Counted from the stretch's first letter, positions 17,741 through 55,397 are shown. The stretch: DNA of 64,000 bases from Deltaproteobacteria bacterium (GCA_020852715.1 JADZAE010000075.1:23960-87959); one strand, 5' to 3'. Notes: generated from the letters alone by a model not told the origin. Translations and numbers: made by a program.

Positions 17741-17751
17741 GTTACGTTCTA

Positions 17752-18639: not shown

Positions 18640-18684
18640 TTTAGCAATACTTATAACTTTAGATAGAAAAGATTAGGCAGTAAT

Positions 18685-19824: not shown

Positions 19825-21159
19825 TCAGCCAATGTGGTGCTGCAATTCTTGGACAAGCTTATAGTTATCCGAATGACCTGTCATGCGGGCTCTCAATTTC
19901 CCCTGTAACGGCCGGCCTATCAGGAACAAATCCCCTATCGCATCAAGTATCTTATGGCGTGCCAATTCTTCCGGGAAACGTAATTCTGTATTGATTACTT
20001 TATCTTCTCCAATCAAGATAAAATTATTAAGACGTCCACCAGCAGCTAACCCGGCCTTTTGCAGTTTTTCGATATCTTTCATGAAGCCAAATGTACGTGC
20101 CGGAGCTATCTCCGATTTAAAGGTATCTTTGCCATTGAGCTTAAACTCGAAAAGCAGACGTCCTACCGGAGCGGGGTAAATTAACTCATATACGATAGTT
20201 AACCCGTCCTCCGCAGAAGGCTCTAAGCATAGGCTTTCTCCCATTTTGGCCTCGGAGAAATTTAATTCTATCTTCTCCTGCACAGCCAACTCGAACCACT
20301 GACCACCCTGCTCAACGATGCCAATCTCATCAAGCCTGTTACAAATTGTGCTTCCCGAGCCATCAAAAATGGGGACTTCATCATTACATTTAACCAACAG
20401 ATTGGTAATGCGATAAGCGTGTAGCACCGCCATTAAGTGTTCAATCGTTGATACTGTGGCACGATTAGAGCTAAGTGCTGTAGCAAATGCAGTTGTATCA
20501 ACATAATCAACAAATGCCGGAATGGTCTGGGTTTCCCCAATTTTTGAAAAATGGATACCGGAATTTATCGGTAGCGGTTCAAGTACCAATCCGCTTTTCT
20601 GACCGGAGTGTAGACACTGCCCATATAATATTGTGCTTTTAGCAATAGTTCTTTGCCCAAGATTTTTCCCCTTCCATCCGGTGGATAAAACACCACGGTG
20701 ATTCAACAAGCCTAACTTGCCAGAATCATCACCGGATAAATTAATTTCTTTGTGCTTGTTACGTTTCTTCTCTAACGCACGCGAGGCAGAAAATATTACA
20801 CTTTCAATATCAAAGGGTTTTTCGATAAAGTCAAACGCACCGCGTTTCGTGGCTTCTAATGCATTGGAAATAGTGGCGTGACCGGAAATCATGATCACTT
20901 CCGTATCTGGAGAGACCTGTTTAATTTTTTCTAAGGTCTCCACGCCATCCCAACCGGGCATCCAAATATCTAAAAAAACAAGATCAGGATTGTGTTTTTT
21001 AACAGCTTCCAGAGCTGCCTGGCCATCATGAGCGGATAGTGTATCATAACTTTCATCGCGCAGAACACTACTTAGAGAGGTGCAAATACTATCCTCGTCA
21101 TCGACAACTAAAATCAACGGCATTTTTATTTCTGTGGAAGCATTTTCCAGTCTATCCAT
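19825..21159 (-). CDS. lpxC: Response-regulator receiver (NtrC-type REC) domain fused to UDP-3-O-acyl-N-acetylglucosamine deacetylase LpxC
   Basis: The REC domain runs ILVVDDEDS...VFLDIWMPGWDG...IMISGHAT...FDFIEKPFD, with D, S/T and K all present. The LpxC part has TILYGQCLHSGQKSGLVLEPLP, ARTFGFMKDIEKLQKAGLAAGG and HKILDAIGDLFL. GAGG lies 5 nt before the ATG at 21159. Confidence 0.8.
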   Translation of the reverse strand: MDRLENASTEIKMPLILVVDDEDSICTSLSSVLRDESYDTLSAHDGQAALEAVKKHNPDLVFLDIWMPGWDGVETLEKIKQVSPDTEVIMISGHATISNALEATKRGAFDFIEKPFDIESVIFSASRALEKKRNKHKEINLSGDDSGKLGLLNHRGVLSTGWKGKNLGQRTIAKSTILYGQCLHSGQKSGLVLEPLPINSGIHFSKIGETQTIPAFVDYVDTTAFATALSSNRATVSTIEHLMAVLHAYRITNLLVKCNDEVPIFDGSGSTICNRLDEIGIVEQGGQWFELAVQEKIELNFSEAKMGESLCLEPSAEDGLTIVYELIYPAPVGRLLFEFKLNGKDTFKSEIAPARTFGFMKDIEKLQKAGLAAGGRLNNFILIGEDKVINTELRFPEELARHKILDAIGDLFLIGRPLQGKLRARMTGHSDNYKLVQELQHHIG

Positions 21160-36863: not shown

Positions 36864-38165
36864 TTAAGTTAAAGCTGCGCCGCAAGCTGCATTAGCACTA
36901 TTGATTATATTTGATATAAGCACCTTAGCTTTAGCTGCAGTTGCTGTGTGAACATTGCCACGTATTTGCGAATAAGACCTTCCGATGCTCATGAAGTATT
37001 CACACCATACCACTCTAGACATGATATCAGGTCCACCTACTCCCGAAATATCACATGACTTACTGTAAGTTGATGTATAGGTAGTGAGGTAAGAACTTGA
37101 GCTTGGAGCAATTCCGGAGCAGGCATTATAAGTATTCTCTCCTCTCCAATTATTCCGAACATTTGGGCCCAAATCATTCCATTGCTCTTCAGCATTCTCC
37201 AAAGCTGAGATACTGCTTGAGTTACCATTAAATGAATAAACGCAGTCATTGCCTATAGTGCGAACGTAGCTTATAATATCACGCGAGCAGCTAAAGCCAA
37301 CTTGTGGATCTAGAAACTCATATGTAGTGACTCGACGAAAACCTAGCTTTACCACGGCCGATTCCGGCACACGCACTTGAGCAGAATCAACTTTTCTAAG
37401 AACATGTGCTACCAAAGTCCCTGCTGAATTCAACTTCGTAAGACTAGCTTCTGACTTAAATGGCAGAAGAATAGCACCTGTCGTGGCATTTATGATTTCG
37501 CCTTCCTCGCAATTCTCCTTGGCCATTGCTAAAACTGATCCATAATCTTCCACAGTCTGAAATAGCTTATCTCCTTCTTGCAAGCACTTATCACACATCG
37601 GAGAAGTTCCTGACTTAAGAGCTAATTTTTGCTGTAATAGTTTAGCTGCCGTAAGGTTATTAGTAAAAGTAGTTAAACCAGTAACAGCAAGTGGGTGAGC
37701 AATATTCAAGGGAGGATACTCTCTTAACTGACCCAAAGGTTTTAATGCCACCACCGGAGAAATATTGGGGCTATAACTAGCATATGTCCTTGCCGTTGGA
37801 CGATAAGGCTTCAATTATGTGCTGATGTTATATGCTAGCATGTAAATATCCAATTCCAAATCACGAAATCCCCTATCTGATTTTTGATAAGATTTTACCT
37901 TCCAAGTTTGGAGAGTGGTATTAAAATAAATATCCGAGTCCTTAGCAAAAACGATAGACACATCCTTACCGTTATAAAAAGCAACTCTACCCGGTAAGAG
38001 CGCATTATACGCGGGGCACATAGCCACAGCAAAAGAGCAAGTTGCACTTCCTACAGTTAGAACAGTATTAAAGCAGGCTCGAAAATTGGGGATAACATAG
38101 GGAGCGGGAGTGGCAGTTTGGGCAGATGCCGCAGAAAACATCGAAAGAGCCAATGTTGCTCCCAA
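36864..38165 (-). pseudogene. Secreted protein of unknown function with a single in-frame TAA (37815-37817)
   Basis: ORFs 37815-38165 and 36864-37814 share one frame (...YNIST*LKPYRPTART...). There is a signal-peptide-like N-terminus (...LGATLALSMFSAASA/QTA). The start codon is uncertain: TTG at 38165, with an open frame upstream. Confidence 0.5.
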
Positions 38166-38315
38166 ACCAACAGTTCGTAAACTTTTTAATATGGAAGTGT
38201 GGGGATATTTCTTTTTACCTCTTTAATAACCTTCATTAATAAGCCAAACCAAACCTCATAACCTGGAGATACCTTGACTAATCAGGCCTTCCGGCTCAAC
38301 TGCTTCGGTAAAATG

Positions 38316-38520
38316 AATCCATTCACGATTTTTACTGAGTTTCTATCCAAAAGCCCCAAGAGGGGGCAAGTTTTGCGAAGCAAAACTATGGGGGGATGAA
38401 GACTAAGCCTTCACAAGATTAGTCGTTTCCGATGAGGAAACGTCAATAAAATTAAAAATATCCATTTTTTATAATACCCCCAAATTTTTAATAAATCTTA
38501 TCCCGTGAAGGCTTACGGTA
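38316..38520 (+). repeat. Rep-B element, copy 3
   Basis: It matches 28745-28937. Confidence 0.75.
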
Positions 38521-38639
38521 AAATTTAAAATGACAACTTAGCCTAAGCTTTTCCGCCACTTACCCCAAGACAGTGCAACCTCCTTCGCACACAAGTAAAG
38601 CTTGGTTATGATTTTTCAAACGCACATAATTAATCGTGG

Positions 38640-39190
38640 CAGACACGAAGTGGGAACGTGCGCAGCGTGAGTGTTTCAAAAAGAATCTAGCGCCAGCTTC
38701 ACGAACTTCCAAATTGCCAAGGCGTTTTTATGGAACGCGGACCCACATTGAGAGCGAGAGCGAACAACTGGGTCGCCTACGCTACAAAGGCACACGATGG
38801 TTGGCGGAACCACAAACCACGCTTGCCGGCATTCTCACCGCCGGCGACCCAGACTCGGCTACGCCGAGGTCATGGGTCGCGTTCCACAGCGTATGCGGAA
38901 TTTTCACTCGTCCATGGCGCTTACACGTTACGCACAAAATAATTCGGATCTTTTTCGAGTCGCGATGGCCAACGACAAAATTGCCCGAAATCGCACCCAG
39001 CTTATGTTTAGGAGAAGAGCAAGTTTGAGCCGGAGACTAGGAAGACAAGCGGCGAGCCCCAATCGGAAGCCTCCGAGCGGCTTCCGGCCCTGTAACTCTT
39101 CATACCTAACGCTAGTAAATTAAAACAAGCTCACAAACTCCCACAGTGTAGGAAACTACATGCGGAGCCGCGCAGTCTGACAGCGTATCC
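38640..39190. repeat. Rep-C: GC-rich (about 55% by eye) MITE-like element, copy A, with terminal inverted repeats TGGAACGCGGACCCA ... TGGGTCGCGTTCCA
   Basis: The island contrasts with the AT-rich flank and carries only spurious overlapping ORFs. Its conserved ends are shared with 48840-49200. Confidence 0.6.
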
Positions 39191-39209
39191 GGCCAAAATT
39201 GCTCTTCTC

Positions 39210-41957
39210 CTAGCGACGCAGCATTTTTTCGATCGCTACTACCGGCAAAATAATCATTCCCATCAAGGCCGCCATCCCCCAATCCTTTAAATCAATGGGG
39301 GTGGTGGAAAATATCTTACTCATCCACGGTAGGTAAATCACAGCGGCTTGCGCGAGAAGCACCCCGAGAATACCGAGGTAGATTGTCCAGTTGCTAAGTA
39401 AACCTATTTCCAAAACGGAGTTTTTTAAGGAGCGACAGTTGAGCATGTAAAATATCTGGAACATGATGACTGTGGTTAGCGCCATAGTTTGAGCTTTGGA
39501 GAGGGCTATTTTGGAATCCATGCCTAGTTGCTGAGCGCTGGAGTACTCCATCTTAAAAAGGACGATTGCGCCGATGGTCATTAAAATCGAAGCGATAATA
39601 GTGCGGGTGACAAGGAACTTATTAAAAATAGGAGCGTTGGGGCTACGTGGATGGCGAGTCATGATGTCCGGCTCCATGTGCTCAAAAGCTAAGGGCAAGG
39701 CAAGAGCCACTGTCATAATCAGGTTAATCCATAATAGCTGTGCGGGCTGCATGGGAAGCAGTAAGTCCTTGGTGGCAAAGTCAAAGGGGAAGAAAATCAC
39801 GGCATAAACCAAAATAAGAGCAAGACCAATGTTGGTGGGAAGAACAAAGGCGAGAGATTTGATTAAGTTATCATAAACGCGACGGCCTTCTTCGACGGCG
39901 GCGGTGATAGTGGCAAAGTTATCGTCGGTAAGCACGATGTCGGCAGCAGCTTTGGATACGGAGGTGCCGGTAATGCCCATGGCCACGCCGATGTTAGCTT
40001 GTTTAAGAGCGGGAGCGTCGTTGACGCCATCGCCTGTCATGGCGGCAATGTGGTTGTTTTTCTGAAGCGCAGAAACTAGCCTTAGTTTGTGCTCAGGCGC
40101 GACGCGGGCAAAAACATTGGTTTCGTCAACGATGTGGCGAAGCTGTTCGTTGTCAGCTTGTTCAATCTGCGCGCCGGTGACAACAGTATGATCTTTGATT
40201 AAGCCTAGCTGAATACCAATAGCTTGAGCGGTTAGGCGGTGGTCACCGGTTATCATCTTTACTGTCACACCGGCGGCTTGGCATTCTTTAATGGCCGCAA
40301 TCGCTTCTTGGCGTGGAGGATCTATCATGCCGACCAGCCCCAGAAATACGATTTCGTCCTTGATGTCAGGCATATCCAAAGACTTCTTGGTAGAAGCAAA
40401 GCGCTTCTCAGCAATGGCCAAAACGCGCATACCGATAGAAGCCATGGTTTCGATACCGGAGAGCACGCGCCTTTCATCTATGGCTTGGCCGTCAGCGAAG
40501 AAGCGGCAGCGCTTTAGAATAACTTCAGGAGCGCCTTTAACAAAAGCGACAGCTTCGCCATTTGGGTCTTGGACAAATGTTGCCATAAATTGGTTTTCGG
40601 ATTCAAAGGGGATAGCGTCAATCAGGCGATACGAGGAGCGCAGCTGCTCAGCGACCAATCCTAGTTTTCGTGCGGCTACGACAAGCGCAGCCTCTGTCGG
40701 ATCGCCTGTTATCGTCCAGCTTTGCCTGTCTTGAATCAAAGTTGAATCGTTACAAACAGTCGCTGCTGTAAGTAGGCGCTCTAGGTATGGAGGCTTTATT
40801 GTCAGCACTTGTTCGGCAGAGAGGATATCGCCTACCGGCTCATAGCCCACGCCCTTAAATTCATAAGACCCTGAAGGCGTCCAAACGGACTGAACTGTCA
40901 TCTCGTTTTTGGTAAGCGTGCCTGTTTTGTCTGAGCAAATAACAGTAGTGCTACCCAGGGTTTCTACGGCCGGGAGCTTACGCACAATGGCTTTTCTTTT
41001 AGCCATTCTCTGCACGCCCACGCCCAGAGCAATAGTCATAATAGCGGGAAGCCCTTCGGGGATAGCGGCGACAGCTAAGGCCACAGCGAAAATCATCATT
41101 TCGATTAGCGCCTTATCCAGCGGAAAGCCGTTTGCTGTTACGCGAAAGGTTCCGACGGCTACGATTAAAATGGTGATAACCAAGATAGCAAAAGTTATAT
41201 ATTTAGCGACGACCTTTAGCGACGAGGTAAGTGGCGTTTCTAAATTAACTGCTTCGTTAAGTAAGCGCGAGATTTTCCCTAGTTCTGTGCGCATGCCCGT
41301 GCCCGTAACCACAGCCATAGCGGTGCCGTAAGTTACCATGGTGCCGCTAAATACCATGCACAGCCTATCGCCTATGCCCGCATCTTCCCTCACCGCGTGA
41401 ATATTCTTCTGCGCCGGCACAGATTCTCCTGTCAGCGCCGCTTCTTCGACTTGCAAATTTTTATGTGACACAAGGCGCATATCGGCTGGAACCCTATCGC
41501 CGGAAGTAAGCATGACAATATCGCCGGGCACTAATTCGGCAGCGGGCAGGGTAATCTTGTGCCCGTCCCGAATAACCGTTGTGTTTTCAGGCACCATCTC
41601 GATAAGCGCTTCAATCGCTTTACCTGCTTTAAACTCTTGAATGAAGCCAATAATCGAATTGAGTATGACAACGGCCAACACAGTAGAGCCGTCAATCAGC
41701 TTTCCCAGGGCCATGGCTAAAGCCGCTGAACCCAGCAGCACCCAAATGAGCGGGCTATTGATTTGCCGCCAAAGTAAGACCAAGGGGCTGTCTCCTTTTG
41801 CGCGCGGAATTGAGTTTGGCCCATACTCGCCGCGGCGCTCAACAACTTCGGCCTCAGTAAGCCCGGAAAGACTAACCCTCAATTGCTTTAGAACTTCTTC
41901 CACGCCTAAAGCGAACCAGCATAAGCCTTCAGTTTTGGATTTCACATCATTGACCAC
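39210..41957 (-). CDS. P-type cation-transporting ATPase (type IIA, Ca2+/PacL-like)
   Basis: TGES, DKTGTLT and GDGVNDAPAL motifs are present, with about 10 TM helices. Confidence 0.85.
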   Translation of the reverse strand: MVNDVKSKTEGLCWFALGVEEVLKQLRVSLSGLTEAEVVERRGEYGPNSIPRAKGDSPLVLLWRQINSPLIWVLLGSAALAMALGKLIDGSTVLAVVILNSIIGFIQEFKAGKAIEALIEMVPENTTVIRDGHKITLPAAELVPGDIVMLTSGDRVPADMRLVSHKNLQVEEAALTGESVPAQKNIHAVREDAGIGDRLCMVFSGTMVTYGTAMAVVTGTGMRTELGKISRLLNEAVNLETPLTSSLKVVAKYITFAILVITILIVAVGTFRVTANGFPLDKALIEMMIFAVALAVAAIPEGLPAIMTIALGVGVQRMAKRKAIVRKLPAVETLGSTTVICSDKTGTLTKNEMTVQSVWTPSGSYEFKGVGYEPVGDILSAEQVLTIKPPYLERLLTAATVCNDSTLIQDRQSWTITGDPTEAALVVAARKLGLVAEQLRSSYRLIDAIPFESENQFMATFVQDPNGEAVAFVKGAPEVILKRCRFFADGQAIDERRVLSGIETMASIGMRVLAIAEKRFASTKKSLDMPDIKDEIVFLGLVGMIDPPRQEAIAAIKECQAAGVTVKMITGDHRLTAQAIGIQLGLIKDHTVVTGAQIEQADNEQLRHIVDETNVFARVAPEHKLRLVSALQKNNHIAAMTGDGVNDAPALKQANIGVAMGITGTSVSKAAADIVLTDDNFATITAAVEEGRRVYDNLIKSLAFVLPTNIGLALILVYAVIFFPFDFATKDLLLPMQPAQLLWINLIMTVALALPLAFEHMEPDIMTRHPRSPNAPIFNKFLVTRTIIASILMTIGAIVLFKMEYSSAQQLGMDSKIALSKAQTMALTTVIMFQIFYMLNCRSLKNSVLEIGLLSNWTIYLGILGVLLAQAAVIYLPWMSKIFSTTPIDLKDWGMAALMGMIILPVVAIEKMLRR

Positions 41958-42149: not shown

Positions 42150-44750
42150 CTAGTCCTCAAATCCCTTTGGCGCTATTTTGGATTTCTTAATTGCCCAAAC
42201 AACTAAGCCGATACAAACTACCACAACAGCAATCCAAACTCCGTCAATGCCCTTAGTCTGCATAGCAAGGACAGGTGCGAAGTCATTCTGCAACTCAGCT
42301 GGCAATGCGCGCACACCAGCTTTTACTGTATCCACGACCTTCTTGTCATAAGCAATCATCAAAGGCACACCCAGCACCGACACCATATTCATTACTTTTA
42401 ACAGTGGATTTACGGCTGGTCCTGCCGTATCCTTCAACGGATCGCCTACCGTGTCGCCGGTAACAGCCGCTTTATGCTTTTCGCTACCTTTACCTGTGTT
42501 CTTCTCTAAGTCGCGCGGTTCATCTTCGACCATCTTCTTGGCATTATCCCAAGAACCGCCGGAGTTACACATAAAAGAAGCCATGAGCTGACCGACAACA
42601 ATTGAGCCACCGAGGAAACCGGCTAAGCCAATAGGGCCTAGTAAGTAACCAACGCCAATCGGCATAAGCACGCCAAGCATAGCCGGTCCGACTAACTCTT
42701 TTTGTGCCGAGCCTGTGCAAATATCTACTACGCGGCCGTAATCCGGTTTCTTGGTGCCTGCCCAGATTTCTTTGTCGCGGAACTGCACACGGCATTCTTT
42801 CACAATTAAGAACGCAGCTCTACCAACAGCACGAATTAACATGGAGCTAAACATCATCGGAACAGCACCACCGATTAGCATACCGATTAGCAGCTTTGGA
42901 TCGGAAATGCTCAGTAAGCCCGCTACCCTTTCAAAAAGGTCAATAGGCAAAGGCTTATCTTCGCTGCCACCGCCAGAGCCGATAACTGTAATAAAAGAAG
43001 CAAACAAAGACACAGCAGCAATTACCGCTGAACCAATGGCCACACCTTTAGTAACAGCTTTAGTGGTATTACCTACAGCGTCAAGGTCAGCTAAGATTTG
43101 GCGCGACTCCTTATATTTAGCTTCGCCCATCTCTTCCTTTTCAAAGCCCATCTCAGCAATACCGTTTGCGTTATCGGCCACAGGACCAAAAACGTCCATG
43201 GATATGGTGTTACCGGTTAAGGTCAACATACCGATACCGCACATAGCCACGCCATAAGCAATGAAGATAGCGTTTGTGCCGGCATAAATACCAACGGAAG
43301 CAAAGATAGCTATACAAAGCGCAATCGCTGTCCAAACAGCCGACTCATAGCCAACAGAAAAGCCTTCGATAATCGCTGTGCCATGGCCGGTTTCGCATGA
43401 ACGTTGAACGCCTTTAGTCGGCGAATACTCTGTGCCTGTAAAATACTCAGTGATGCGATTAAGCGCTATGCAAAGTATAATACCGATAAAGCAAGTATAA
43501 GCAGGGCGCATGTCTAAGCCAACTTGACCAAAATTCGCCCAGTAACCAAGACTTGCAATACTGTCCCAAGCACCTTGGCTGAGCTGACCAAGAGCAACCA
43601 TGCCTTGATCAAAGCGCAGATAGAAAGCGCCTAAAATCATGAAGCCAACTACTGATATCAATGAACCTAGGATAAAGCCTTTGTTAATCTGCTTTAGAGC
43701 TTCGGCTACATTTCCCTTATCTCCGGCACGTACTGTGTATGTGCTGATAATAGAACCAAACACACCGATAGCACGAACAAGTAGTGGGAAAATTACGCCT
43801 TTGTGACCAAAAGAAGCATAGCCTAAAATCATGGCCGCAACGATAGTTACCTCATAAGACTCGAAAATATCAGCCGCCATACCAGCGCAATCGCCAACAT
43901 TATCACCAACGTTATCCGCAATCGTAGCAGCATTACGCGGGTCATCTTCGGGGATATCCTTTTCGATTTTACCAACTAAGTCAGCACCGACGTCAGCAGC
44001 CTTGGTGTAAATTCCACCACCCACGCGCATGAATAGCGCCAGCAAAGTGCCGCCAAAACCAAAGCCCAACAGAGCTTCGTAAGCGCGCTCACCGTAAACC
44101 ATAAAAATCAAAGTGCCACCTAGTAAGCCTAAGCCGTCGGTGAGCATACCGGTAATTGTTCCTGTGCGGTACCCGAGCATTAACGCGCGACCGAACCCAA
44201 CTCGCGCACCAGCGGCTACGCGTAAGTTACCTGCCGTAGCTAAACGCATCCCAACAAAACCAACCAAGCCGGAGAAAATAGCGCCCATTAAAAATGCCCC
44301 CGCACGCCCAAGTGCAAATGGGTCATTTATACCAAGCGGAGATGACATAGCCTTGGAAAAGAAAAGAATAAAAACAAGAGCTACGATAAGATAAGCAACT
44401 GTAGTCAGCTGCTTTCTTAGATAAGCATCAGCGCCCTCACGAACAGCAGCTGCAATATCTTGCATTTTCTTTGTGCCGGTGTCCGCTCTGTAAACTTGGC
44501 CAACCAGCATCCACGCATAAAGAAGCGCGCAGATGGCTACGACCACGCAAATAATCAACCCTGTCTTTTCATAGCCCAAGAAATGGGGGCTAGTAAAAAC
44601 TGAGAAATATTCAAAGTGATGCTCTGCGCCTGTGCTCGCACCGGCAATGCCGGACAGCATGCTTGTTCCAAACAATCCGCCAAACATCAACATTAATGTA
44701 AAGAGCGCCCAAGAAGGTAACCCTTTTCGTTGATTGCTATTATTATTCAT
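42150..44750 (-). CDS. hppA: Membrane-bound H+-translocating pyrophosphatase, K+-independent type
   Basis: It aligns to V-PPases over its full length. The GNTTKA motif carries the Lys that marks K+-independent enzymes. The likely start is MNNNS (GGAG 6 nt upstream). It has N- and C-terminal extensions with an extra predicted TM helix. Confidence 0.85.
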   Translation of the reverse strand: MNNNSNQRKGLPSWALFTLMLMFGGLFGTSMLSGIAGASTGAEHHFEYFSVFTSPHFLGYEKTGLIICVVVAICALLYAWMLVGQVYRADTGTKKMQDIAAAVREGADAYLRKQLTTVAYLIVALVFILFFSKAMSSPLGINDPFALGRAGAFLMGAIFSGLVGFVGMRLATAGNLRVAAGARVGFGRALMLGYRTGTITGMLTDGLGLLGGTLIFMVYGERAYEALLGFGFGGTLLALFMRVGGGIYTKAADVGADLVGKIEKDIPEDDPRNAATIADNVGDNVGDCAGMAADIFESYEVTIVAAMILGYASFGHKGVIFPLLVRAIGVFGSIISTYTVRAGDKGNVAEALKQINKGFILGSLISVVGFMILGAFYLRFDQGMVALGQLSQGAWDSIASLGYWANFGQVGLDMRPAYTCFIGIILCIALNRITEYFTGTEYSPTKGVQRSCETGHGTAIIEGFSVGYESAVWTAIALCIAIFASVGIYAGTNAIFIAYGVAMCGIGMLTLTGNTISMDVFGPVADNANGIAEMGFEKEEMGEAKYKESRQILADLDAVGNTTKAVTKGVAIGSAVIAAVSLFASFITVIGSGGGSEDKPLPIDLFERVAGLLSISDPKLLIGMLIGGAVPMMFSSMLIRAVGRAAFLIVKECRVQFRDKEIWAGTKKPDYGRVVDICTGSAQKELVGPAMLGVLMPIGVGYLLGPIGLAGFLGGSIVVGQLMASFMCNSGGSWDNAKKMVEDEPRDLEKNTGKGSEKHKAAVTGDTVGDPLKDTAGPAVNPLLKVMNMVSVLGVPLMIAYDKKVVDTVKAGVRALPAELQNDFAPVLAMQTKGIDGVWIAVVVVCIGLVVWAIKKSKIAPKGFED

Positions 44751-44948
44751 TTTCATCTCCAATCGTTTAGGAAAATACAAAGTAAAAATCCTTAAGGTTT
44801 GCCAGCTGCGCTTAGACAAAACTTGTAGGGGTAGCTTTGCACTTGAATAGACTAAACCGTCAATAGAATAATTAACTAAGGCGTGAGGATAGATTAGTTA
44901 AGCACAATTACTATAACTAAGATGAACCACAGAAGAAATAAACAAAAC

Positions 44949-45484: not shown

Positions 45485-46423
45485 TTATCTTGAGGCTATT
45501 TGACGCGCATAATGAGCCGCCCCTACTAATCCGATATCGTCATGGCTAATCAATTTAACCGGCATCATCGCAAGAACGCTGTGATAAGCTGAGGATCGGC
45601 AGAAGGTTTCAATAAATAAAGGATTATTTACCAAAAGGGGATTTTTAGCCGCCAGTCCGCCAGAAATGTACAGTCCGCCGGTGGCTAAAACATCAAGTGC
45701 AAAATTTCTAGCCGCCACCGCATAGAGTTTCGTCGCGATATGAAAAGTTTCGGATTTTCCATCTAAATGAAGGGCAACTTCTGTGGGAGTGAGCTGTTTC
45801 CCTGTCACGAACTCGTGAATCAAAGAGAGCCCCGAACCCGACACCAAGTGCTCCATCACCACATAAGGGGCATTAAGTTTTTGCCTGACAAATTCCTGAA
45901 GCTCAAACTCTTCCTTCGTCTCAGAAACAAAATTGACATGGCCGCCTTCACAAGGGAAAGCCCGCCGGATACCATTAGTGTCACTTATGACAAATGCTTT
46001 ACCCAGTCCCGTGCCCGCACCAATCACCGCCGCAGTTCCCGACTCCGCAGCCCTGCCAGCTTGAATCTCAATCGTCTCTTGCGCATTTACGCTGCCATAA
46101 GCCTGAGCCACAAAATCATTAATTAGCTCAACGCGTGCAGAGCGAGGAAACTTTTCCAAATCAATCACACAATCAGCATTAGTTAGCTTACAATATTTCC
46201 CACCAATAATCGGCCCCGCCACAGCTAATGCTACAAAGTCATAATTAGGCCACGACAACTCCGCACAACTCTCTATCAGCTCCAGCAAATCCTCACTTGA
46301 CCTAATACCGGCTGTCGGCAGATTGACCAACTTACTCAAAACCGGAAACTCTTCGGTTCCAACCGTAAACTCCCCCAAACGCAGATTAGTCCCACCAATA
46401 TCACCAGCTAAAATTCTCATCAT
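45485..46423 (-). CDS. glk: Glucokinase
   Basis: The N-terminus ILAGDIGGTNLRLG fits the Glk family (PF02685). Confidence 0.8.
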   Translation of the reverse strand: MMRILAGDIGGTNLRLGEFTVGTEEFPVLSKLVNLPTAGIRSSEDLLELIESCAELSWPNYDFVALAVAGPIIGGKYCKLTNADCVIDLEKFPRSARVELINDFVAQAYGSVNAQETIEIQAGRAAESGTAAVIGAGTGLGKAFVISDTNGIRRAFPCEGGHVNFVSETKEEFELQEFVRQKLNAPYVVMEHLVSGSGLSLIHEFVTGKQLTPTEVALHLDGKSETFHIATKLYAVAARNFALDVLATGGLYISGGLAAKNPLLVNNPLFIETFCRSSAYHSVLAMMPVKLISHDDIGLVGAAHYARQIASR

Positions 46424-46689
46424 TTTCTCATCCAGTTATTACTCAGCAGCAAGCAACGGCATCTATTGATACATAAAACTTTCTTTCTCAGCTGGCAATC
46501 AGAAAGGCAGAACACCAAGGACAGGAAACAGGAAAGTAAATCAATAATCACAACAAGAATTGAAGCAAAATTGACATTATCTATCGCAAAATGGATTAAA
46601 ACTTATCCCCTTACATAAAGAGAAAACAAAAATCGCCCTCAAGCGCTCATTGAAAGATAATAAGTTTGGAGGTTATCCCTGAGAAGGTT

Positions 46690-47340
46690 GTAATAAAGAT
46701 ATCAGAACCAATAAAGATTGAACCATCTTCAGCTCCTCCGTCAGTAATGTCTCCGTCCCAATTAAAGTCAACGTTGTCACCACTATCAAGCTTCCCTATT
46801 AAGTTAATCCCCCATTAGGAGCAACAATTACAGACCTGCCCAAGTCATTGCCATATTGTGTCACTCTTTTGGCATATTCCCAATTTCCCGCTGAATCAAA
46901 AACGCTTACAAAAGCACCTGCTCCACTATTACTTTCCGCACCACCATCAGTATAATCACCATCGCCGTTCATATCAGCATTGCCAGTAATAGAACCCGTA
47001 ACAATAACAGAATTTGCAGAATTCACGGCTACCCCATATCCAATATCTGCACCTGTCCCTCCTAAGCGTTTAGCCCATTGCCTTGAGCCCGCGGAACTAA
47101 ATACCGAAATGAAGGCATCAGTGTCGGCATATCCCGTAGAACTCTCAGCCCCCACCAGCTGCGCTAGCATCACCGTTCATATCTGCCGCACCACTTACCT
47201 TACCAGCAACCATTATATTTCCAGCGACATCTACTGAAACAGCATTGGCATAATCGGCACTTGTGCTACCTAAACGCCTTGCCCAGCGCCAAACAGCGCC
47301 GGAATCAAACACTGTCACAAAAGCAATGAGCATATTGCGC
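46690..47340 (-). pseudogene. Fragments of a beta-propeller (SBBP-repeat) protein gene, multiply disrupted
   Basis: WAKRLGGTGADIGYGVAVNSANSVIVTG and WRWARRLGSTSADYANAVSVDVAGNIMVAG are SBBP repeats. They are split over several frames. Confidence 0.45.
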
Positions 47341-48802
47341 TTATGCCTGATGGTAGTGGCAATGTCGGTATCGGCACAACAGACCCGCTACAACAGCTAG
47401 CGCTAAGCAAATCAATTAGGCTAGAAGAAACTACAGCGTCTGATATTGGGGTTGTGTATAAGGGGAGCAATCGTTTCATTCATGACTTCCGAGCTTAGGA
47501 AACTGATGGCCAAAATATATTTGTTGGTCTTAACACTGGTAATTTCACATTGACCGGAACGATGAACCAGAGTGACAGTAGTTACAACACCGCGCTCGGT
47601 TATAGTGCTCTTACCGCTCTAGAAACAGGAAGCTATAATACCGCAATTGGGCATACTGCATTAACAGCTAATACTACTGGAACTGATAACACAGCTATCG
47701 GTGCAATGGCTCTTGGTATAAATACGGAAGGAGCAGCGAATGTGGCTATTGGATCGGGGGCTTTATCCTTAGTAACAACAGGGTCAGATAATGAGGCCAT
47801 CGGTACTGGCACGGGAGCAAACTTAGTAAGTGGCTCTAACAACACTTTTATCGACAAGCAAGCGGGGGTAGAGATTAACGGTTCGGGAAACGTTTTTATT
47901 GGTTACAGCGCCGGATTTTACGAGACAGGAAGCAATAAACTGTTCATCGACGCACCCTTACGACTAGGCCGCTAATCTATGGCGACTTTAGCACCGATAG
48001 GTTAATTATTAATAACACCATACAGCTCGGTAGCAATAGTGCTGACGGAAGTTTTACAATATTCTCAGAGCAAGGAGGAACCGATTATACTGTTGCCTTT
48101 TCTCCTCATGCTACAATGACGCAAAACGTAACTTATACATTGCCGGCGAATGATGGCGATGCGGGACAAGTATTACAGACAGATGGTAGTGGATCTCTGA
48201 GCTGGGCAACAGCAGCCTCGACGGCGCATGATCATAATGCTAACTATATTGCCTCGCTTGCTCATAATCACGATACGAACTATGCAGCCGCAGCACACGC
48301 TCACTCCGATTATTTAACGTCATTGGCACATAATCATGATGCTGAATATATCACGTCTTTAGCTCACGATCACGATAGCGATTATGTCGCCGCAGCGCAT
48401 GCTCACTCTGATTACTTGAGCTCGCTGGCACATAATCACAGTGGGGATAACTCACTTCCTTAGCACATAACCACGCCGCTGATTATTTGGCTAAAGGCGG
48501 GGACACAATGACAAGAAGCTTGACCTTCTCCGGTGTGGGAGGTTCCTTATGCGATTACTATCCGTAACATAAAAGTCCTTACTGTCGGCGGCTTTGACGA
48601 AACAGATAGTAATGGTGGAACTGTTGTCGCCGTGGATAGCGACATTACTGCTACTGCCGGCACTAGAGCTTCGGACGACGGATCGCTTACTAACCCGACA
48701 ATCGCCGCCAACAATAATGTCTATTGGCATACAACTTCGATCTTCGGCTCACCAACCACTATTATTGTAACTTTCTACGACACAGTTGATTCCGTGAACT
48801 AA
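47340..48802 (+). pseudogene. Phage tail-fibre-like gene remnant (NTAIG repeats, YTLPANDGDAGQVLQTDGSGSLSW motif, His-rich SLAHNHDxxY repeats), frameshifted at least twice
   Basis: ORFs 47550-47975, 48116-48463 and 48533-48802 are contiguous in shifted frames. The motifs are characteristic of tail-fibre / short-fibre proteins. Confidence 0.5.
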
Positions 48803-48839
48803 TCAGCTAGTCCGTAATCTAATCATACGTTTTTATGGT

Positions 48840-49200
48840 TAGGGCACGTGCAACGCTTAAGTCTTATGGCCAATTCTCCGATGCGTGTATTTATTGCTGT
48901 TAAAGAGATCTCACGAACTTGTAAATAACCGTTGCGTTTTTGTGGAGCGCGACCCATCTGGGAGCGGCAGCGGACAGTAGGTCGCCTACGTGTCGGTTTC
49001 CCAATGGCCTTAAGGTGTGAGGCGGCTAGGGCCGAGAAATGCTTTTTTTACGCGATCCTCAGGCAACCCAGTCGCTCCGCAACATGGTTCGCGTTCCACA
49101 GGTACCACGACTCTTGTTGCATTAGCCCACTTTATCCCAAAATAAAAATCCGATATTCTTAATGGGCAACTTGTGTATAAGACTCCCGTGCAACGTATTC
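48840..49200. repeat. Rep-C GC-rich MITE-like element, copy B
   Basis: It shares with copy A the conserved left end (TGGAGCGCGACCCA...GAGCGGCAGCGGACAGTAGGTCGCCTACG) and right end (CATGGTTCGCGTTCCACAG), plus the flanking TCACGAACTT block. Confidence 0.6.
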
Positions 49201-49360
49201 CTACAACATAGCATCGTAATTTAGAAGTTTTGTAATTTGTGTATAATACTTTGCTCGTCTATACTCCTTTTGCTCACAAACAAATACCTCAAGGCTAGAT
49301 GTAGGCAAGCAAAGATAAATTTGCTATTGTCAGCAGAGATAGAAATTTAATTAAAAAGAC

Positions 49361-49675
49361 ATGACAAACCCTTTTTCCGAACATAAAGAAGATACTTTAG
49401 TTGAAGATGAAATCGAAACTAAAGAGCCGAGTATGTATAAAGTCATTTTATTAAATGATAATTATACGACTATGGATTTTGTGGTCTTGGTTTTAGAACA
49501 GATTTTTAAGAAAATGCCTGCAGAAGCACAGCAAATAATGCTTAATGTTCATGAGCAAGGTGCAGGACTGGCGGGAATTTACACAAAAGATGTAGCGGAA
49601 ACAAAGGTTGCTTTAGTTCATAAATTCGCCCGGGACAGAGAGTTTCCGCTTAAATGCACAATGGAGGCAGTTTAG
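49361..49675 (+). CDS. clpS: ATP-dependent Clp protease adaptor ClpS
   Basis: YKVILLNDNYTTMDFVVLVLEQIF is the ClpS core. It sits immediately upstream of clpA. Confidence 0.85.
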   Translation: MTNPFSEHKEDTLVEDEIETKEPSMYKVILLNDNYTTMDFVVLVLEQIFKKMPAEAQQIMLNVHEQGAGLAGIYTKDVAETKVALVHKFARDREFPLKCTMEAV

Positions 49676-51946
49676 ATGTTTAATCAAGAACTAGAATGGA
49701 CCCTGATTGCGGCAGAACGTGAAGCTCAAAGCCGCGGGCATGAATGCGTATGCGCCGAGCATTTGTTATTTGCGCTGTTACATAACAACGAAGCGCTGGG
49801 TGTATTGGCAGAGTTGAGTGCCGATGTGGATCTATTAAAACAACAGTTGGAAGAGTTTTTTACCACTAAACTAGAGATTCTCCCGCCGCAAAAACAAACT
49901 CAAGTCTACTACAGCATGGGCTACGAACGGATAATAAATCGAGCAATTTTGCACAGCAAATATTCGAACTCAGAGAATATTACTGCCGGGGATATTTTGA
50001 TCGCTCTGCTTAATGAAGCAGAAAGCCATGCTGTGTTTTTTCTACAAGCGCAAGGGATAACGAAGCTCGCAGTGCTAGAAACTATCTCCCATAGAGATTT
50101 GGAAACTCCCGGCTTCAAAAACACGAAAGCTGAGGAAGATAAGGCTACCAACAACAAAGCTAGCACCACTGCGAGCATCGACGATTATTTAACTAACTTG
50201 GTAGCTAAAGCCAAAGAAGGGAAACTAGATCCGCTCATTGGACGCGATGAAGAGATTTCTCGTCTTGTCCATATACTGTGCCGACGAAACAAAAATAATC
50301 CGCTCTTGGTAGGCGATCAAGGCGTTGGAAAAACTGCCGTAGCCGAGGGTCTCGCTATACGCATAGCTGAGAAACAAGTTCCGGAGCGCTTGTTTTTCTC
50401 TCTCATATTTTCACTGGATTTAGGGGCGATTTTAGCAGGCACAAAATATCGTGGCGATTTTGAAGCGCGTATCAAAAAAGTAATCAAGCATTTGGAGCAA
50501 ATTCCTAACGCAATTCTTTTTATTGATGAGATACACACTATCATTGGAGCTGGCTCTACTTCCGGCGGAACTTTAGATGCAGCGAATATGTTAAAGCCCG
50601 TTTTAACTAATGGAGAGATACGGGTTATTGGCAGCACTACTTACGAAGAATACAAAAATCACTTTCAAAAGGATCGTGCTTTGGCCCGACGCTTCTCTAA
50701 AATTGATATCAATGAGCCTTCTGTTTCGGAAACAGTGAAAATTCTTCAAGGATTAAAATCCCGCTTTGAAGAGCATCATCATGTTACTTACCCTGACGCA
50801 GCAATTAGTGCCGCCGCCGAGCTGGCGGCTAAATATATTAATGACAGATTTTTGCCGGACAAAGCCATTGATATAGTTGACGAGGCTGGGGCCGAGGTAA
50901 GCTTGGCGGCTAAAGGTTCTGAAGAGCAGGAAGTAAGCATAGAGCAAATTGAGAAAGTTATTGCAAAAATTGCCAAAATACCAACCAAGACAGTCAGCAC
51001 TTCGGATAAAGAAAAGCTGGTTGTCTTGGAGCAAGAGCTACGCAATGTTATCTTTGGCCAAGACGAAGCCTTAGCCGTCCTCTGCAAAGCAATACGCAGG
51101 TCGCGTTCTGGTTTGGGTAGCGAGGGCAAACCAATTGGCTCATTTTTGTTTGCCGGCCCCACCGGCGTGGGCAAAACCGAAGTGGCCAAACAGTGTGCGA
51201 AAGTTTTGGGATTAGATCTGCTACGCTTTGATATGAGCGAATATATGGAAAAGCATGCGGTCAGCCGCTTAGTGGGAGCTCCTCCCGGATATGTTGGGTA
51301 TGAGCAGGGCGGATTGCTCACGGATGCTATTATCCGAACCCCTTACACAGTGTTACTGTTAGATGAAATCGAAAAGGCTCATCCGGATATTTATAATATT
51401 CTTCTGCAGGTAATGGATCACGCCACGCTTACTGATACAAACGGGCGCAAAGCAGATTTTCGTAATGTAATTATATTTATGACGACCAATGTGGGTTCGG
51501 AAGAAATGTATGGTCAGGCTATCGGTTTTGCTACCGGCGGCACAACGGTGGGTCAGGGAAAAATTGATAAGGCGTTTCGACCGGAGTTTCGCAATCGCTT
51601 AACGGCAATAGTGAAATTTAATCCGCTTTCAACAAAAGTGGTGGAACAAGTAGTCGATAAATTTATTACTGAAATAGATGTCCAGTTGGGGTCTAAAAAT
51701 TCAACCATTTCAATTAGCGGTGCTGCGCGTTCCTGGTTGGCTCAAAATGGATTTAGCAACGAATTTGGAGCTCGTTCGCTATATCGCTTGATTCAGAAAG
51801 AAATCCAAGATCCCTTAGCCGACAGCTTGCTATTTGGGGAGTTGACCCAGGGAGGAAGCGTGTACGTGGATATAGTAGGTGGTAAAATCAACTTAAACTT
51901 TAGTAAAAAATGCGATAACCCCATGCCTACATTAGTAACTACTTGA
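49676..51946 (+). CDS. clpA: ATP-dependent Clp protease ATP-binding subunit ClpA
   Basis: Two AAA+ modules are present (GDQGVGKT, GPTGVGKT), with a Clp N-domain. The clpS-clpA synteny is preserved. Confidence 0.9.
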   Translation: MFNQELEWTLIAAEREAQSRGHECVCAEHLLFALLHNNEALGVLAELSADVDLLKQQLEEFFTTKLEILPPQKQTQVYYSMGYERIINRAILHSKYSNSENITAGDILIALLNEAESHAVFFLQAQGITKLAVLETISHRDLETPGFKNTKAEEDKATNNKASTTASIDDYLTNLVAKAKEGKLDPLIGRDEEISRLVHILCRRNKNNPLLVGDQGVGKTAVAEGLAIRIAEKQVPERLFFSLIFSLDLGAILAGTKYRGDFEARIKKVIKHLEQIPNAILFIDEIHTIIGAGSTSGGTLDAANMLKPVLTNGEIRVIGSTTYEEYKNHFQKDRALARRFSKIDINEPSVSETVKILQGLKSRFEEHHHVTYPDAAISAAAELAAKYINDRFLPDKAIDIVDEAGAEVSLAAKGSEEQEVSIEQIEKVIAKIAKIPTKTVSTSDKEKLVVLEQELRNVIFGQDEALAVLCKAIRRSRSGLGSEGKPIGSFLFAGPTGVGKTEVAKQCAKVLGLDLLRFDMSEYMEKHAVSRLVGAPPGYVGYEQGGLLTDAIIRTPYTVLLLDEIEKAHPDIYNILLQVMDHATLTDTNGRKADFRNVIIFMTTNVGSEEMYGQAIGFATGGTTVGQGKIDKAFRPEFRNRLTAIVKFNPLSTKVVEQVVDKFITEIDVQLGSKNSTISISGAARSWLAQNGFSNEFGARSLYRLIQKEIQDPLADSLLFGELTQGGSVYVDIVGGKINLNFSKKCDNPMPTLVTT

Positions 51947-52119
51947 TATATATAGCAAATAAAAATACTTAATATTGATATAGATTATTAAGTAAACAGC
52001 CAGAAATGCCGAGTTTAGTACTAGGAAATGCGAGAATTAGAAGTTTACTAACGGGAAATAAGGACCAATAGAAAACAGCTACGGTTTTTTATCTGATCCT
52101 TCAAGCAGGGATAAGGCTT

Positions 52120-52938
52120 ATGGCAATTACTATAAACAATAATATTCCTTCGTTACAGGCTAACCGTCAGATCAATAAACAATCTAAAGAAATCGGCGAT
52201 AGCTTTGATAAGTTATCGAGCGGGTTAAGAATCAATAAGGCCTCGGCTGATCCGGCAGGGTTAGCGGTGGCTTTAGATTTATTAGCAACCGCCGACATTA
52301 GCTCTGTGGCCTCACGAAATATCAGTGATGGGGTATCGCTCACCGCTATTGCCGACGGCGCACTTGAGAGCGCCGGAGAAATCACGGGTCGCATGTCCGA
52401 GTTGGCAACGCAAGCCGCTAACGGCACATTAAGTGATGAGCAGCGGACTGCTCTCAACAATGAATATCAGCAGCTAAAAAGTGAACTTGATCGTATCGCG
52501 CAAACAACCGAATTCAACGATCAAAAACTCTTGGCTCAAGATAATACTATCAGTTTACAAGCAGGAACTTCGGGGAATGGCAGCTCTCAAGTAGTTCTCA
52601 GTTTGCCCGGAGTTTCCTCTTCTAGTTTGGGTATGCCAGCCAACATATCTTCGCAGGCTAATGCACAATCGGCGATAGATCAAATCGCTACAGCTAGAGA
52701 TAATATATCCCAAGCAAGGGGGGCAATTGGTGCCTCGGCTAGCCGTTTTGAAACAGCGTATAACAATCTGCAAACTTCGGAAATTAACCAGAGAGAGGCA
52801 GCTAGCCGCATTAGAGACGTCGATGTCGCACAAGAAAGTTCTAATCTGGTAGCCAATCGTATTAGAGAACAGATGTCGGCAGCAATGAGTTCACAAGCCA
52901 ATTTACTGCCAAATCTGGCGCTAAAACTGTTAGGTTAG
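52120..52938 (+). CDS. fliC: Flagellin (short, D0/D1-only type, 272 aa)
   Basis: The N-terminal LSSGLRINKASADPAGLAVA...SRNISDGVSL matches the flagellin N-domain (RINSAKDDAAGQAIA...SRNANDGIS). The C-terminal SRIRDVDVAQESSNLVANRI...SQANLLPNLALKLL matches the flagellin C-domain. Confidence 0.75.
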   Translation: MAITINNNIPSLQANRQINKQSKEIGDSFDKLSSGLRINKASADPAGLAVALDLLATADISSVASRNISDGVSLTAIADGALESAGEITGRMSELATQAANGTLSDEQRTALNNEYQQLKSELDRIAQTTEFNDQKLLAQDNTISLQAGTSGNGSSQVVLSLPGVSSSSLGMPANISSQANAQSAIDQIATARDNISQARGAIGASASRFETAYNNLQTSEINQREAASRIRDVDVAQESSNLVANRIREQMSAAMSSQANLLPNLALKLLG

Positions 52939-53837
52939 CTGTTAAGCGTTGCTAGTTTCTTTGTGCAGATTACTCCATTCCCACTATCGTTATAGTTGAC
53001 GCTGTCGAATATCTTTGAAATAAGCACAATTCCGCGGCCACTAAATTTGCCCTCATTGGCAATTTCCTGTGCCGTAGTTCGGTAAGCACGCCAATTAAAT
53101 CCTTTGCCCGAATCGTGAATAATACAGGTTAGAAGGTCCTCGGCTAATTCTATTTTAACTTTGATAACTTTGTTTTCTCGTTCAGCAATGCGACTTTGCT
53201 CGGTGACAAATTCATCAAATTTTCCCGCCTCGCACAAACTAGTTTTAGTTTCATAATCAATACCTAAATTCCCATGCTCCAGCGAATTGCGCAGTAGCTC
53301 TTGAATACCAAGCTCTATTCTTGCCAGCTCCGATCCGATACAGGCAGAAGTCAAAAAATTAGAAATAATAGCTCCTCCATGCCTAATGGCTTCCACCGAG
53401 CTTTTTAAGACCATTTCTAAATGAGCGCTGTTAAATAAATGAGCATGAAACTTTTTGCTGCTGCGCCGAGCAATTATATTGCAAAAACGAGATACGACGA
53501 GGAACAATTCGTCTTCGCTTATCGGGCGCGGAATAAAATCACTTGCTCCCGCTTTAAGACAATTAATAATTTTTTCATCCTGATATCTACCCGTGACCAC
53601 GATTAAAACTTCGCGATTTTCATAGCATAAGACGCGGATAAAATCCTCAGTAGATAAATTTTGTGGACGGGTATCAACTATTACTATTTGGGGGAATTGC
53701 TTCTTGTAGTAGCTAAGCGCATCAGTAGTGGTAGTGGCGCTCATCACATTACTGCAAGTTCGAGCAAGCACGGCACCGGCTACGGCACTGTCATGAGCAT
53801 CTAAACCAACAATTAAAGCTCTTATTGTTTCATCCAT
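52935..53837 (-). CDS. Atypical receiver domain fused to an RsbW/SpoIIAB-like GHKL serine-kinase (HATPase_c_2) domain
   Basis: The REC-like N-terminus (VIVDTRPQ...) has the conserved Lys replaced by Arg. The C-terminus has the N-box ELLRNSLEHGN, the G1 box DSGKGF and the G2 box GRGIVLI. Confidence 0.6.
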   Translation of the reverse strand: MDETIRALIVGLDAHDSAVAGAVLARTCSNVMSATTTTDALSYYKKQFPQIVIVDTRPQNLSTEDFIRVLCYENREVLIVVTGRYQDEKIINCLKAGASDFIPRPISEDELFLVVSRFCNIIARRSSKKFHAHLFNSAHLEMVLKSSVEAIRHGGAIISNFLTSACIGSELARIELGIQELLRNSLEHGNLGIDYETKTSLCEAGKFDEFVTEQSRIAERENKVIKVKIELAEDLLTCIIHDSGKGFNWRAYRTTAQEIANEGKFSGRGIVLISKIFDSVNYNDSGNGVICTKKLATLNS

Positions 53838-54019
53838 CGCCGCCTCTCTTTTCTAACCGGCAATACCTTTCAATTAGGCTTGTTTGATCATTTAGCCATA
53901 GGTTTAGATGAACATCGGTGCGCAATAGTTTCAACAGCAAATCATCGATTAAATTTCATTTCGTGCTAAGCATAATAATCTATGGATTATTAAAATATGC
54001 CTAGATTTAGAGAAAATGA

Positions 54020-54093
54020 TCGGGGTGAGAGGATTTGAACCTCCGACTCCTTGATCCCAAATCAAGTGCGCTACCAGGCTGCGCTACACCCCG
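54020..54093 (-). tRNA. tRNA-Pro (TGG), no encoded CCA
   Basis: The reverse complement CGGGGTGTAGCGCAGCCTGGTAGCGCACTTGATTTGGGATCAAGGAGTCGGAGGTTCAAATCCTCTCACCCCGA folds as a cloverleaf with anticodon TGG. Confidence 0.85.
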
Positions 54094-54215
54094 TAAATAA
54101 AACTTCAGGCGTCAAAGAAAGCGCCCCTATCTATTCAAAGCTATATAAATTGTCAAATTAACACTGTTTTTATTGGGGAAGATTGGGGATCTTCTGATGG
54201 AAAAGAGATATCAAA

Positions 54216-55397
54216 TCACGACTTAACTAGGGGAAATTTTATCTCAACTATAGTGCCCCCATCCTCTGGAGTATGAAAGTGGATGAATCCATTGTTAAGT
54301 ATTAGGTATTTGCTAACTATCGCTAGCCCCAAACCACATCCTTGCTGCTCTTTGGTTTCTCTATCGATCTGAGTGAACATTCCACATACTTCATTAACTG
54401 CAGAAGCTGATATTCCCTGACCATGATCTCGGATGAATAAAGAGGCATCTTCGGAAGTTGCTTGTATATTTAATTCAATAGAACCTGAGCGACCACCAAA
54501 CTTTAGGGCATTGGATAATAAACGATGAATAACTTCTGATATCTGTGGTTCACATACCATAATATGAAATTTAATACTTTTATCAAAGATTGGCTGGCTG
54601 ATGCGTTGAAAATCTTTAACCGCAATCTCATCTTCAAATGACCTCATCGAACGTTGCAGCAATTCTACAAAATTAATTTCCTTTTTATAGCGCTTAGCAA
54701 CTATCTCTGCATGACCGGAGTCGATTTGTTGAATAGTAATAAAATCTTCAACTAGGTGCTGTAGGCGCTGCCCACCGTGTTGTATTGATTCTATCAAGTC
54801 AAATAATACTTTGCGATCCAACTTATCTAATTGATCACGTAATAACTCAGTGCCGGTATTCACCGCTACGAGCGGTGTCCTAAATTCATGCGATAAAGTG
54901 TGAATAACCCGTTTTCGGAAGCTTTCCATGCGATGATCTAATATGCCATGAAACTCTTCAGATCTTTTTAATTTTCCACGAACTAGGCTTAATAGATCCT
55001 GCGTGTCGAATGGTTTAAACATATACTCATCGATGCCCAATTCCTGCGCTTCCCTTACCTTTTCCGAGTCAGTGACTCCTGTTAAGAAAATGAAGGGGAT
55101 CTGTGCTAATTCGTGGCTCTTCCGCAAAAGCTGATGTAAGGCACCACCATCTTCATTGGGCATTACGATGTCGGATATTATTAGATCAGGAATCATGGAG
55201 TTAAGAATTTGGCGAGCTTCATCAACGCTGGTGGAGGTGACTACTTCATAGCCATGGTGAACCAATATATCCTTGATCACTGAGAGGATAGGAAGATCAT
55301 CATCCACGACAAGAATACGGTAGCTCTTTTTTTGCTCCGCTTGTCCTTGATCACCATTGATTTGAAAACTACTAGGATGCAACTTCTTAACTTCCAA
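54216..55397 (-). CDS. Hybrid sensor kinase: N-terminal receiver + HisKA + HATPase_c, no recognisable sensor domain
   Basis: The REC domain is ILVVDDDLPIL...DLIISDIVMP...KPF. The H-box is LSHEFRTPL, the N-box RLLSNALKFG, and G1/G2 are RDHGQGI/GCGLGLAIV. Confidence 0.8.
   Translation of the reverse strand: MEVKKLHPSSFQINGDQGQAEQKKSYRILVVDDDLPILSVIKDILVHHGYEVVTSTSVDEARQILNSMIPDLIISDIVMPNEDGGALHQLLRKSHELAQIPFIFLTGVTDSEKVREAQELGIDEYMFKPFDTQDLLSLVRGKLKRSEEFHGILDHRMESFRKRVIHTLSHEFRTPLVAVNTGTELLRDQLDKLDRKVLFDLIESIQHGGQRLQHLVEDFITIQQIDSGHAEIVAKRYKKEINFVELLQRSMRSFEDEIAVKDFQRISQPIFDKSIKFHIMVCEPQISEVIHRLLSNALKFGGRSGSIELNIQATSEDASLFIRDHGQGISASAVNEVCGMFTQIDRETKEQQGCGLGLAIVSKYLILNNGFIHFHTPEDGGTIVEIKFPLVKS

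Follow-up and report, generated by a model that had tools for sequence, protein, structure and literature searches.

What role should be assigned to a flagellin gene that stands among signalling genes, with no other flagellar gene in sight? The question is raised by a 64,000-nucleotide stretch of DNA (the window) from a Deltaproteobacteria bacterium (GCA_020852715.1, JADZAE010000075.1:23960-87959), in which positions 52,120 to 55,397 hold a short flagellin gene (fliC), a convergent gene for an anti-sigma factor fused to a receiver, a tRNA-Pro gene, and a gene for a histidine kinase that also carries a receiver. A sequence-only reading of the locus had proposed an orphan flagellin, either controlled through a sigma factor by its neighbours or recruited for a role outside motility. 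The explanation favoured here, at a probability of roughly 0.75, is that the gene encodes a conventional structural flagellin of a Bdellovibrionota-like metagenome-assembled genome (MAG) in which the flagellar genes are dispersed, and that the genes on its 3' side form a separate signalling unit of the type represented by LvrB and LvrC in Leptospira.

The identity of the flagellin is evident from its domains. The 272-aa open reading frame (ORF) matches the full profile of Flagellin_N (Pfam PF00669; residues 5-143, profile positions 1-139 of 139, E=1.1e-36) and that of Flagellin_C (Pfam PF00700; residues 186-271, profile positions 1-86 of 86, E=4.5e-17), the two being joined by a linker of 42 aa without a D2/D3 outer domain, as had been read from the sequence when D0/D1 signatures lacking a variable domain were described at both termini. 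NCBIfam flagellin models align with the ORF from end to end at 155-175 bits, its PDB sequence matches are flagellins in every case, and solved filament flagellins of 270-282 aa (many PDB structures, some of them of 271-272 aa) likewise align with it end to end. An identical protein is carried by NCBI under the name 'MAG: flagellin FliC [Deltaproteobacteria bacterium]'. The closest matches, at 50-69% identity, are all metagenomic flagellins of 265-276 aa, and the nearest named relatives among the matches listed are from Bdellovibrionales/Bdellovibrionota MAGs, at ~50-52% identity. Across the 72 relatives compared, the protein is conserved over its full length, as expected for a subunit that is exported and polymerises. 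It is a flagellin of the FliC/Hag type, reduced to the D0-D1 core.

Short flagellins encoded at dispersed sites have a precedent in Bdellovibrio bacteriovorus, which produces six flagellins of ~29-31 kDa, all present in one filament and encoded as two pairs and two singletons (PMC2791853). Its flagellar genes are scattered, in clusters of two or three (PMC2791853, Iida et al. 2009). The window flagellin resembles FliC1-FliC6 of this organism in being short, in having no outer domain, and in being encoded apart from other flagellar genes; it differs in belonging to an uncultured lineage whose similarity to named Bdellovibrionales MAG proteins is limited to the ~50-52% identity given above.

The location of the gene is also shared with its relatives, as evidenced by a comparison of the window with related loci, designated L001, L002, L003/L004, L005, L024 and L048, and with contigs 3541, 37009 and 1663. 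Relatives with 54-69% identity to the window flagellin have their gene at the equivalent site, and the positional fliC orthologues of L001, L002, L003/L004, L005 and L024 are 54-65% identical to it. The gene order is (mgtC)-glk-clpS-clpA-yggX-arginase-fliC in all of these other than L024, the closest relative whose DNA was compared, where fliC directly follows glk and clpSA is absent from the site. In the window, the order is glk, a 3-kb degenerate insert, clpSA, and fliC. In the favoured explanation, fliC is a monocistronic late gene whose site (mgtC-glk-[clpS-clpA]-fliC) is conserved within the lineage. A flagellar type III apparatus with its genes elsewhere would probably export the product for polymerisation into the filament. 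In view of the normal size for a filament flagellin, the dispersed genes of Bdellovibrio and the conserved position, the proposal of an orphan, unusual or non-motility flagellin is not supported. The window flagellin belongs to a known family and is ordinary both as a member of it and in its dispersed arrangement; flagellin genes that are short and dispersed are already well known, and as a flagellin it adds nothing new.

The gene convergent with fliC, the last 4 nt of which it shares with the flagellin gene, encodes a 300-aa protein with a Response_reg domain (35.8 bits, slightly over the cut-off of 30.2) and a HATPase_c_2 domain (E=3.2e-12). A phmmer comparison aligns residues 37-300, and hence both domains, with PDB entry 9QIH at E=2.8e-20, and a profile of the Bergerat domain finds 9QIH at 5.6e-20 and RsbW at 1.4e-3. 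The AlphaFold2 model of the protein (predicted local distance difference test score 89.4) has 9QIH as its top Foldseek match (5.5e-21), followed, for the C-terminal domain, by SpoIIAB and RsbW with template modelling scores of 0.75-0.85 normalised to SpoIIAB/RsbW. The 9QIH entry is LvrC of Leptospira interrogans, in which, according to a 2026 description, a receiver is followed by an anti-sigma domain of the Bergerat fold (PMC13269768). In a family alignment of 42 homologues, D55, N184, D242xGxG246 and G267xG269 are invariant, and D55 aligns with D53 of LvrC. Both Pfam domains and the homology to LvrC bear out the earlier description of a convergent gene that joins a receiver to an anti-sigma-type GHKL domain. 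The receiver had also been called degenerate, a term that is too strong for a domain that is only mildly atypical: Asp55 and Thr82 are kept, Arg is found in place of Lys104, and GLD stands where the N-terminal acidic pair would be.

The likeness to LvrC lies in the succession of a receiver with an acceptor Asp and an RsbW/SpoIIAB-like Bergerat domain, and in a length of 300 as against 304 aa. The differences are an identity of ~23-30%, the Arg in place of the receiver Lys, and the lack of a DD pair. The genomic setting differs as well, in that Leptospira lvrC is not beside lvrB, whereas the window gene is adjoined by a Rec-kinase gene; moreover, a flagellin gene faces the window gene tail-to-tail, and the relatives of the window gene include a receiver-less form of 170 aa. 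In the case of Bacillus SpoIIAB and RsbW, the common features are the C-terminal fold and the conserved N, G1 and G2 ATP-binding motifs. Control of the window protein would, however, be exerted through the fused receiver, in contrast to SpoIIAB/RsbW partner switching, and no gene for a STAS antagonist or a PP2C phosphatase lies nearby. SypE, HsbR and CrsR are partner-switching systems. In L001, the orthologue is without the DxGxG motif, which has been lost, unlike in SpoIIAB/RsbW. Proteins of ~300 aa that combine REC and HATPase_c_2 domains are widespread.

The gene for the 393-aa kinase precedes the anti-sigma gene on the shared strand, and L024 has an orthologue of 60% identity with the same adjacency. 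Asp76 and His170 are both present, and no other input domain was detected by Pfam. The protein had been described as a sensor-less hybrid kinase, which is correct in so far as it consists of REC, HisKA and HATPase domains only; it is not an oddity for want of a sensor, however, but a representative of a recognised class in which the receiver serves as the input domain. The kinase resembles LvrB (lic11708) and the Ralstonia PhcR class in its REC-DHp-CA order, in the absence of any other sensor domain, and in the possession of a receiver Asp and a DHp His. It differs from LvrB in that the two have no close sequence relationship, and, as judged from sequence, it is of the LvrB class and not an LvrB orthologue.

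In Leptospira, the LvrB and LvrC genes are unlinked, and the two proteins were matched by phosphotransfer profiling. The two genes beside the window flagellin encode further members of this recently defined signalling pair, and by analogy they are best read as one two-step module, leading from a Rec-kinase to a Rec-anti-sigma factor, with the 393-aa kinase as the likely phosphodonor for the anti-sigma receiver. Such a scheme would follow the LvrB to LvrC logic of Leptospira. An upstream kinase corresponding to LvrA would phosphorylate the receiver of the Rec-controlled histidine kinase and so activate it, the activated enzyme would autophosphorylate at His170, Asp55 of the neighbouring Rec-anti-sigma protein would in turn receive the phosphoryl group, and the RsbW/SpoIIAB-like domain of that protein would hold or release a sigma factor.

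Several observations weigh against a structural flagellin with an LvrB-LvrC-type unit at its side. As had been remarked at the outset, the window proteins include no further flagellar Pfam family (46 ORFs of at least 150 aa searched at E<=1e-5, unannotated ones again at E<=0.05, and small intergenic ORFs by eye). Nor was any other flagellar gene seen in a total of ~125 kb of flanking DNA from seven related loci, and the explanation assumes a flagellar apparatus encoded elsewhere in the MAG. The candidate sigma-28-type promoter of the window gene, TAAG-N15-GCCGAGTT, has p ~0.22 per 300-nt window against the a-priori consensus and is not significant alone. For the signalling unit, the 60 best PDB sequence matches of the 393-aa kinase include no chain of LvrB; since close sequence kinship to LvrB is lacking, the pathway analogy rests on architecture and adjacency. 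Phosphorylation of the anti-sigma receiver is likewise not certain, given the Arg at the nearly invariant Lys104 and the missing DD pair.

The pairing of fliC with an anti-sigma gene extends well beyond the window. Within the flagellin clade, seven lineages or more have the two genes as a tail-to-tail pair, with the anti-sigma gene in the receiver-fused form in the window, L024 and contig 3541, and in a receiver-less form of 158-171 aa in L001/L048, L003/L004, contig 37009 and contig 1663. Identity between the anti-sigma proteins of these pairs drops to 24-39%, and the 3' ends of the two genes overlap by 4-12 nt in three cases. On contig 37009, the pair is kept though both outer flanks differ, with bioB/bioF upstream and NUDIX downstream. 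When placed on a flagellin tree, the pairs are distributed across the clade, the pair seems to have been lost in L002 and L005, and it is missing from the outgroups.

Such an arrangement might reflect functional coupling, whereby the LvrC-type anti-sigma factor regulates a FliA/sigma-28-like group-3 sigma factor that transcribes fliC, and a phosphorelay gates flagellin expression, whether alongside FlgM or in its place. Interference between the two genes, antisense or transcriptional, could be a further effect of the tail-to-tail overlap. Retention of the pair in so many lineages despite the divergence of the anti-sigma protein, its persistence on contig 37009 with changed flanks, and the overlapping 3' ends with no predicted terminator are all consistent with coupling, as are the raised chemotaxis and flagellar transcripts of Leptospira lvr mutants (PMC5863495). 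The pair occurs in one clade only, however, where shared ancestry may explain it, and the clade members L002 and L005 have no anti-sigma gene at the position. Of the family members beyond the clade that were open to examination, the closest, P0129 (41%), does not adjoin a flagellin gene, and the same is true of the metagenome relatives of the anti-sigma protein in 22 of 23 cases, the single exception being the L001 organism; for another family member, P0130, the contig ends just past the gene and is uninformative on flagellin linkage. As the relatives outside the clade are not linked to flagellin, inherited synteny of two overlapping convergent genes is a more economical explanation than functional coupling. 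In addition, the genes are convergent and not co-transcribed, and no sigma or STAS gene was found in the window. Functional coupling is thus considered unlikely. With regard to the sigma/anti-sigma control suggested by the sequence-only reading, the homology to LvrC and the clade-wide tail-to-tail pairing speak in its favour, but the coupling itself is unproven.

RsbW/SpoIIAB-type anti-sigma factors act on group-3 sigma factors, the group that contains sigma-28, and the HptB-HsbR-HsbA partner switch of P. aeruginosa acts on FlgM/FliA. A more specific conjecture is that the tail-to-tail pairing of the anti-sigma gene with fliC predates the diversification of the clade and has been retained because the anti-sigma protein sequesters FliA/sigma-28 or a divergent group-3 sigma factor, with the receiver and the Rec-kinase placing flagellin under phosphorelay control in the window subclade. 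This is quite improbable, but if true it would name a candidate sigma class for the LvrC-type anti-sigma factors. The sigma target of LvrC itself is still unknown (PMC13269768), and for a family without a known sigma partner the convergent pairing provides a concrete and cheap hypothesis, namely sigma-28 as the target.

Two tandem, divergent group-3 sigma-like genes (267-282 aa) are located 3.5-8 kb from fliC in L003 (14829-17011) and in L002 (11800-13986). Their products give partial matches to FliA/WhiG and to SigB/F/G, all below the curated NCBIfam cut-offs, and in L003 the pair is followed by a 112-aa ORF without a family match. These genes are candidate partners of the anti-sigma factor.

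A different possibility is that the lineage has no flagellum, and that the gene is a true orphan, its product being a flagellin homologue kept as a secreted or surface protein or as the substrate of another secretion system. The lack of other flagellar genes in the window and in the related flanks examined would fit such a history, as would the separation of the flagellin gene from fliD, fliS and flaG in every locus. Nevertheless, D0 and D1 are intact and the full length is conserved, as filament assembly and export by the flagellar type III secretion system require, and the protein closely resembles flagellins of equal length that form filaments. Dispersed fliC genes are, moreover, normal in the nearest named group (PMC2791853), and the L003 orthologue is preceded at -146 by a near-perfect match to the sigma-28 consensus, TAAA-N15-GCCGATTA (p ~0.001), which implies a flagellar regulon in L003. 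A true orphan is therefore regarded as very improbable.

The L003 match is the sole significant case against the a-priori consensus. A post-hoc motif, [TC][TA]A[AG]-N15-G[CT]CGA, is present upstream of six of the nine clade flagellins where 0.02 would be expected, a test that is circular, and the count of sigma-28 patterns across the whole window is at chance level. The fliC leader contains GGA motifs, and a Shine-Dalgarno-proximal block, GCA(A/G)GGAUAAGGCU, is common to the window and L024. Folding of the leader is not significant (z=0.35), and a CsrA/FliW-type leader on fliC is a lead only. Downstream of fliC, no convincing terminator and no significant 3'-end structure were found.

That the ORF encodes FlgL, the hook-filament junction protein, can for practical purposes be dismissed, since the N-terminal flagellin domain is common to FlgL but the FlgL model TIGR02550 reaches only 92.4 bits, over residues 7-133 alone and below its cut-off of 127.2 bits, whereas the flagellin models match over the full length at up to 175 bits and the PDB matches are all flagellins.

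A flagellin of another kind was seen in L006 (GCA_964612555.1), where positions 4214-6295 encode a 'giant' flagellin of 693 aa, in which a PD40-like insert separates Flagellin_N from Flagellin_C. It is located 4 kb from a 269-aa flagellin with 50% identity to that of the window.

Table 1. Features of the fliC neighbourhood in the window, with position, strand, and the basis of or remarks on the assignment.
Glucokinase gene, upstream synteny anchor	45485..46423	-	Pfam Glucokinase E=2.4e-60
clpS, Clp adaptor	49361..49675	+	Pfam ClpS E=5.4e-34
clpA, AAA+ unfoldase	49676..51946	+	Pfam Clp_N, AAA, AAA_lid_9, AAA_2, ClpB_D2-small
Candidate sigma-28-type promoter, TAAG-N15-GCCGAGTT	51989..52015	+	weak call; 131 nt before ATG
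fliC, 272-aa flagellin with D0/D1 only	52120..52938	+	Pfam Flagellin_N and Flagellin_C, both full profile
LvrC-type Rec-regulated anti-sigma factor, 300 aa	52935..53837	-	Response_reg and HATPase_c_2
tRNA-Pro(UGG), between kinase gene and anti-sigma gene	54020..54093	-	ARAGORN, Rfam
Rec-controlled histidine kinase (REC-DHp-CA), 393 aa	54216..55397	-	Response_reg 28-139, HisKA 161-228, HATPase_c 284-390

The flagellin gene had been noted to lie immediately 3' of clpA, and the end of clpA is indeed 173 nt upstream (Table 1). A functional link between the two was considered and rejected, since L024 has no clpSA at the site and, in other relatives, clpA is separated from fliC by yggX and a gene of the arginase family; the adjacency is a local variant of a conserved housekeeping neighbourhood, with no functional tie to the flagellin. 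The ClpA protein of the window is 57-64% identical to those of L001, L002, L003 and L005, and the glucokinase gene is also found upstream of clpS or fliC in L001, L003, L005 and L024.

In L003 and L005, glk is directly beside clpS, and for this reason the 3 kb that separate the two genes in the window (46424-49360), a region with no long ORF, resemble a decayed insertion. Its + strand carries fragments of a gene like those for phage tail-fibre or virion-structural proteins, and SBBP-like fragments are found on the - strand. An ORF at 47550-47975 has matches to phrog_6002 (7e-24) and, at 3e-15, to a tail spike PHROG; another, at 48116-48463, contains repeated HxH motifs.

The tRNA-Pro gene recognised in the sequence-only reading is confirmed, and over the whole window Rfam finds three tRNAs only. 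In three lineages, a tRNA-Pro(UGG) gene closely precedes the anti-sigma gene and shares its strand, the intervals concerned being 11329-11426 in L003, 53838-54093 in the window and 5548-5865 in L024. In the case of L003, only 20 nt lie between the tRNA-Pro gene and the anti-sigma start codon, which suggests that the two are co-transcribed there. In L001, the start of the receiver-less anti-sigma gene is overlapped by a gene for a 151-aa J-domain (DnaJ-like) membrane protein (11332-11787, the same as L048 5501-5956).

A possible tie between the flagellin and glycosyltransferases with TPR domains, of the FlmG type, had also been raised, but finds no support. In the glycosyltransferase/methyltransferase cluster at 2.5-15 kb, the domains are confined to GT1, GT2 and methyltransferase, and TPR was not detected at E<=1e-5 or, for the N-terminal parts of the two large glycosyltransferases, at E<=0.05. 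Over 37 kb separate this cluster from fliC, and it is absent from the related fliC loci. Directly after it, at 15637-19368 on the + strand, are four consecutive ORFs (525, 179, 295 and 227 aa) without a Pfam family, the last of which is coiled-coil-like.

Elsewhere in the window, a 1.4-kb region at 37815-39209 contains no convincing ORF and has no Rfam match. Genes for a P-type cation ATPase (39210-41957) and an H+-pyrophosphatase (42150-44819) have a GC content of 0.47-0.50, as compared with ~0.40 elsewhere. Lastly, a 444-aa protein encoded at 19825-21159 on the - strand joins an N-terminal receiver (E=3.7e-31 over residues 16-120) to an LpxC deacetylase that is complete (E=1.2e-72 over residues 169-440), an unusual fusion that looks like a means of placing the first committed step of lipid A synthesis under receiver control.

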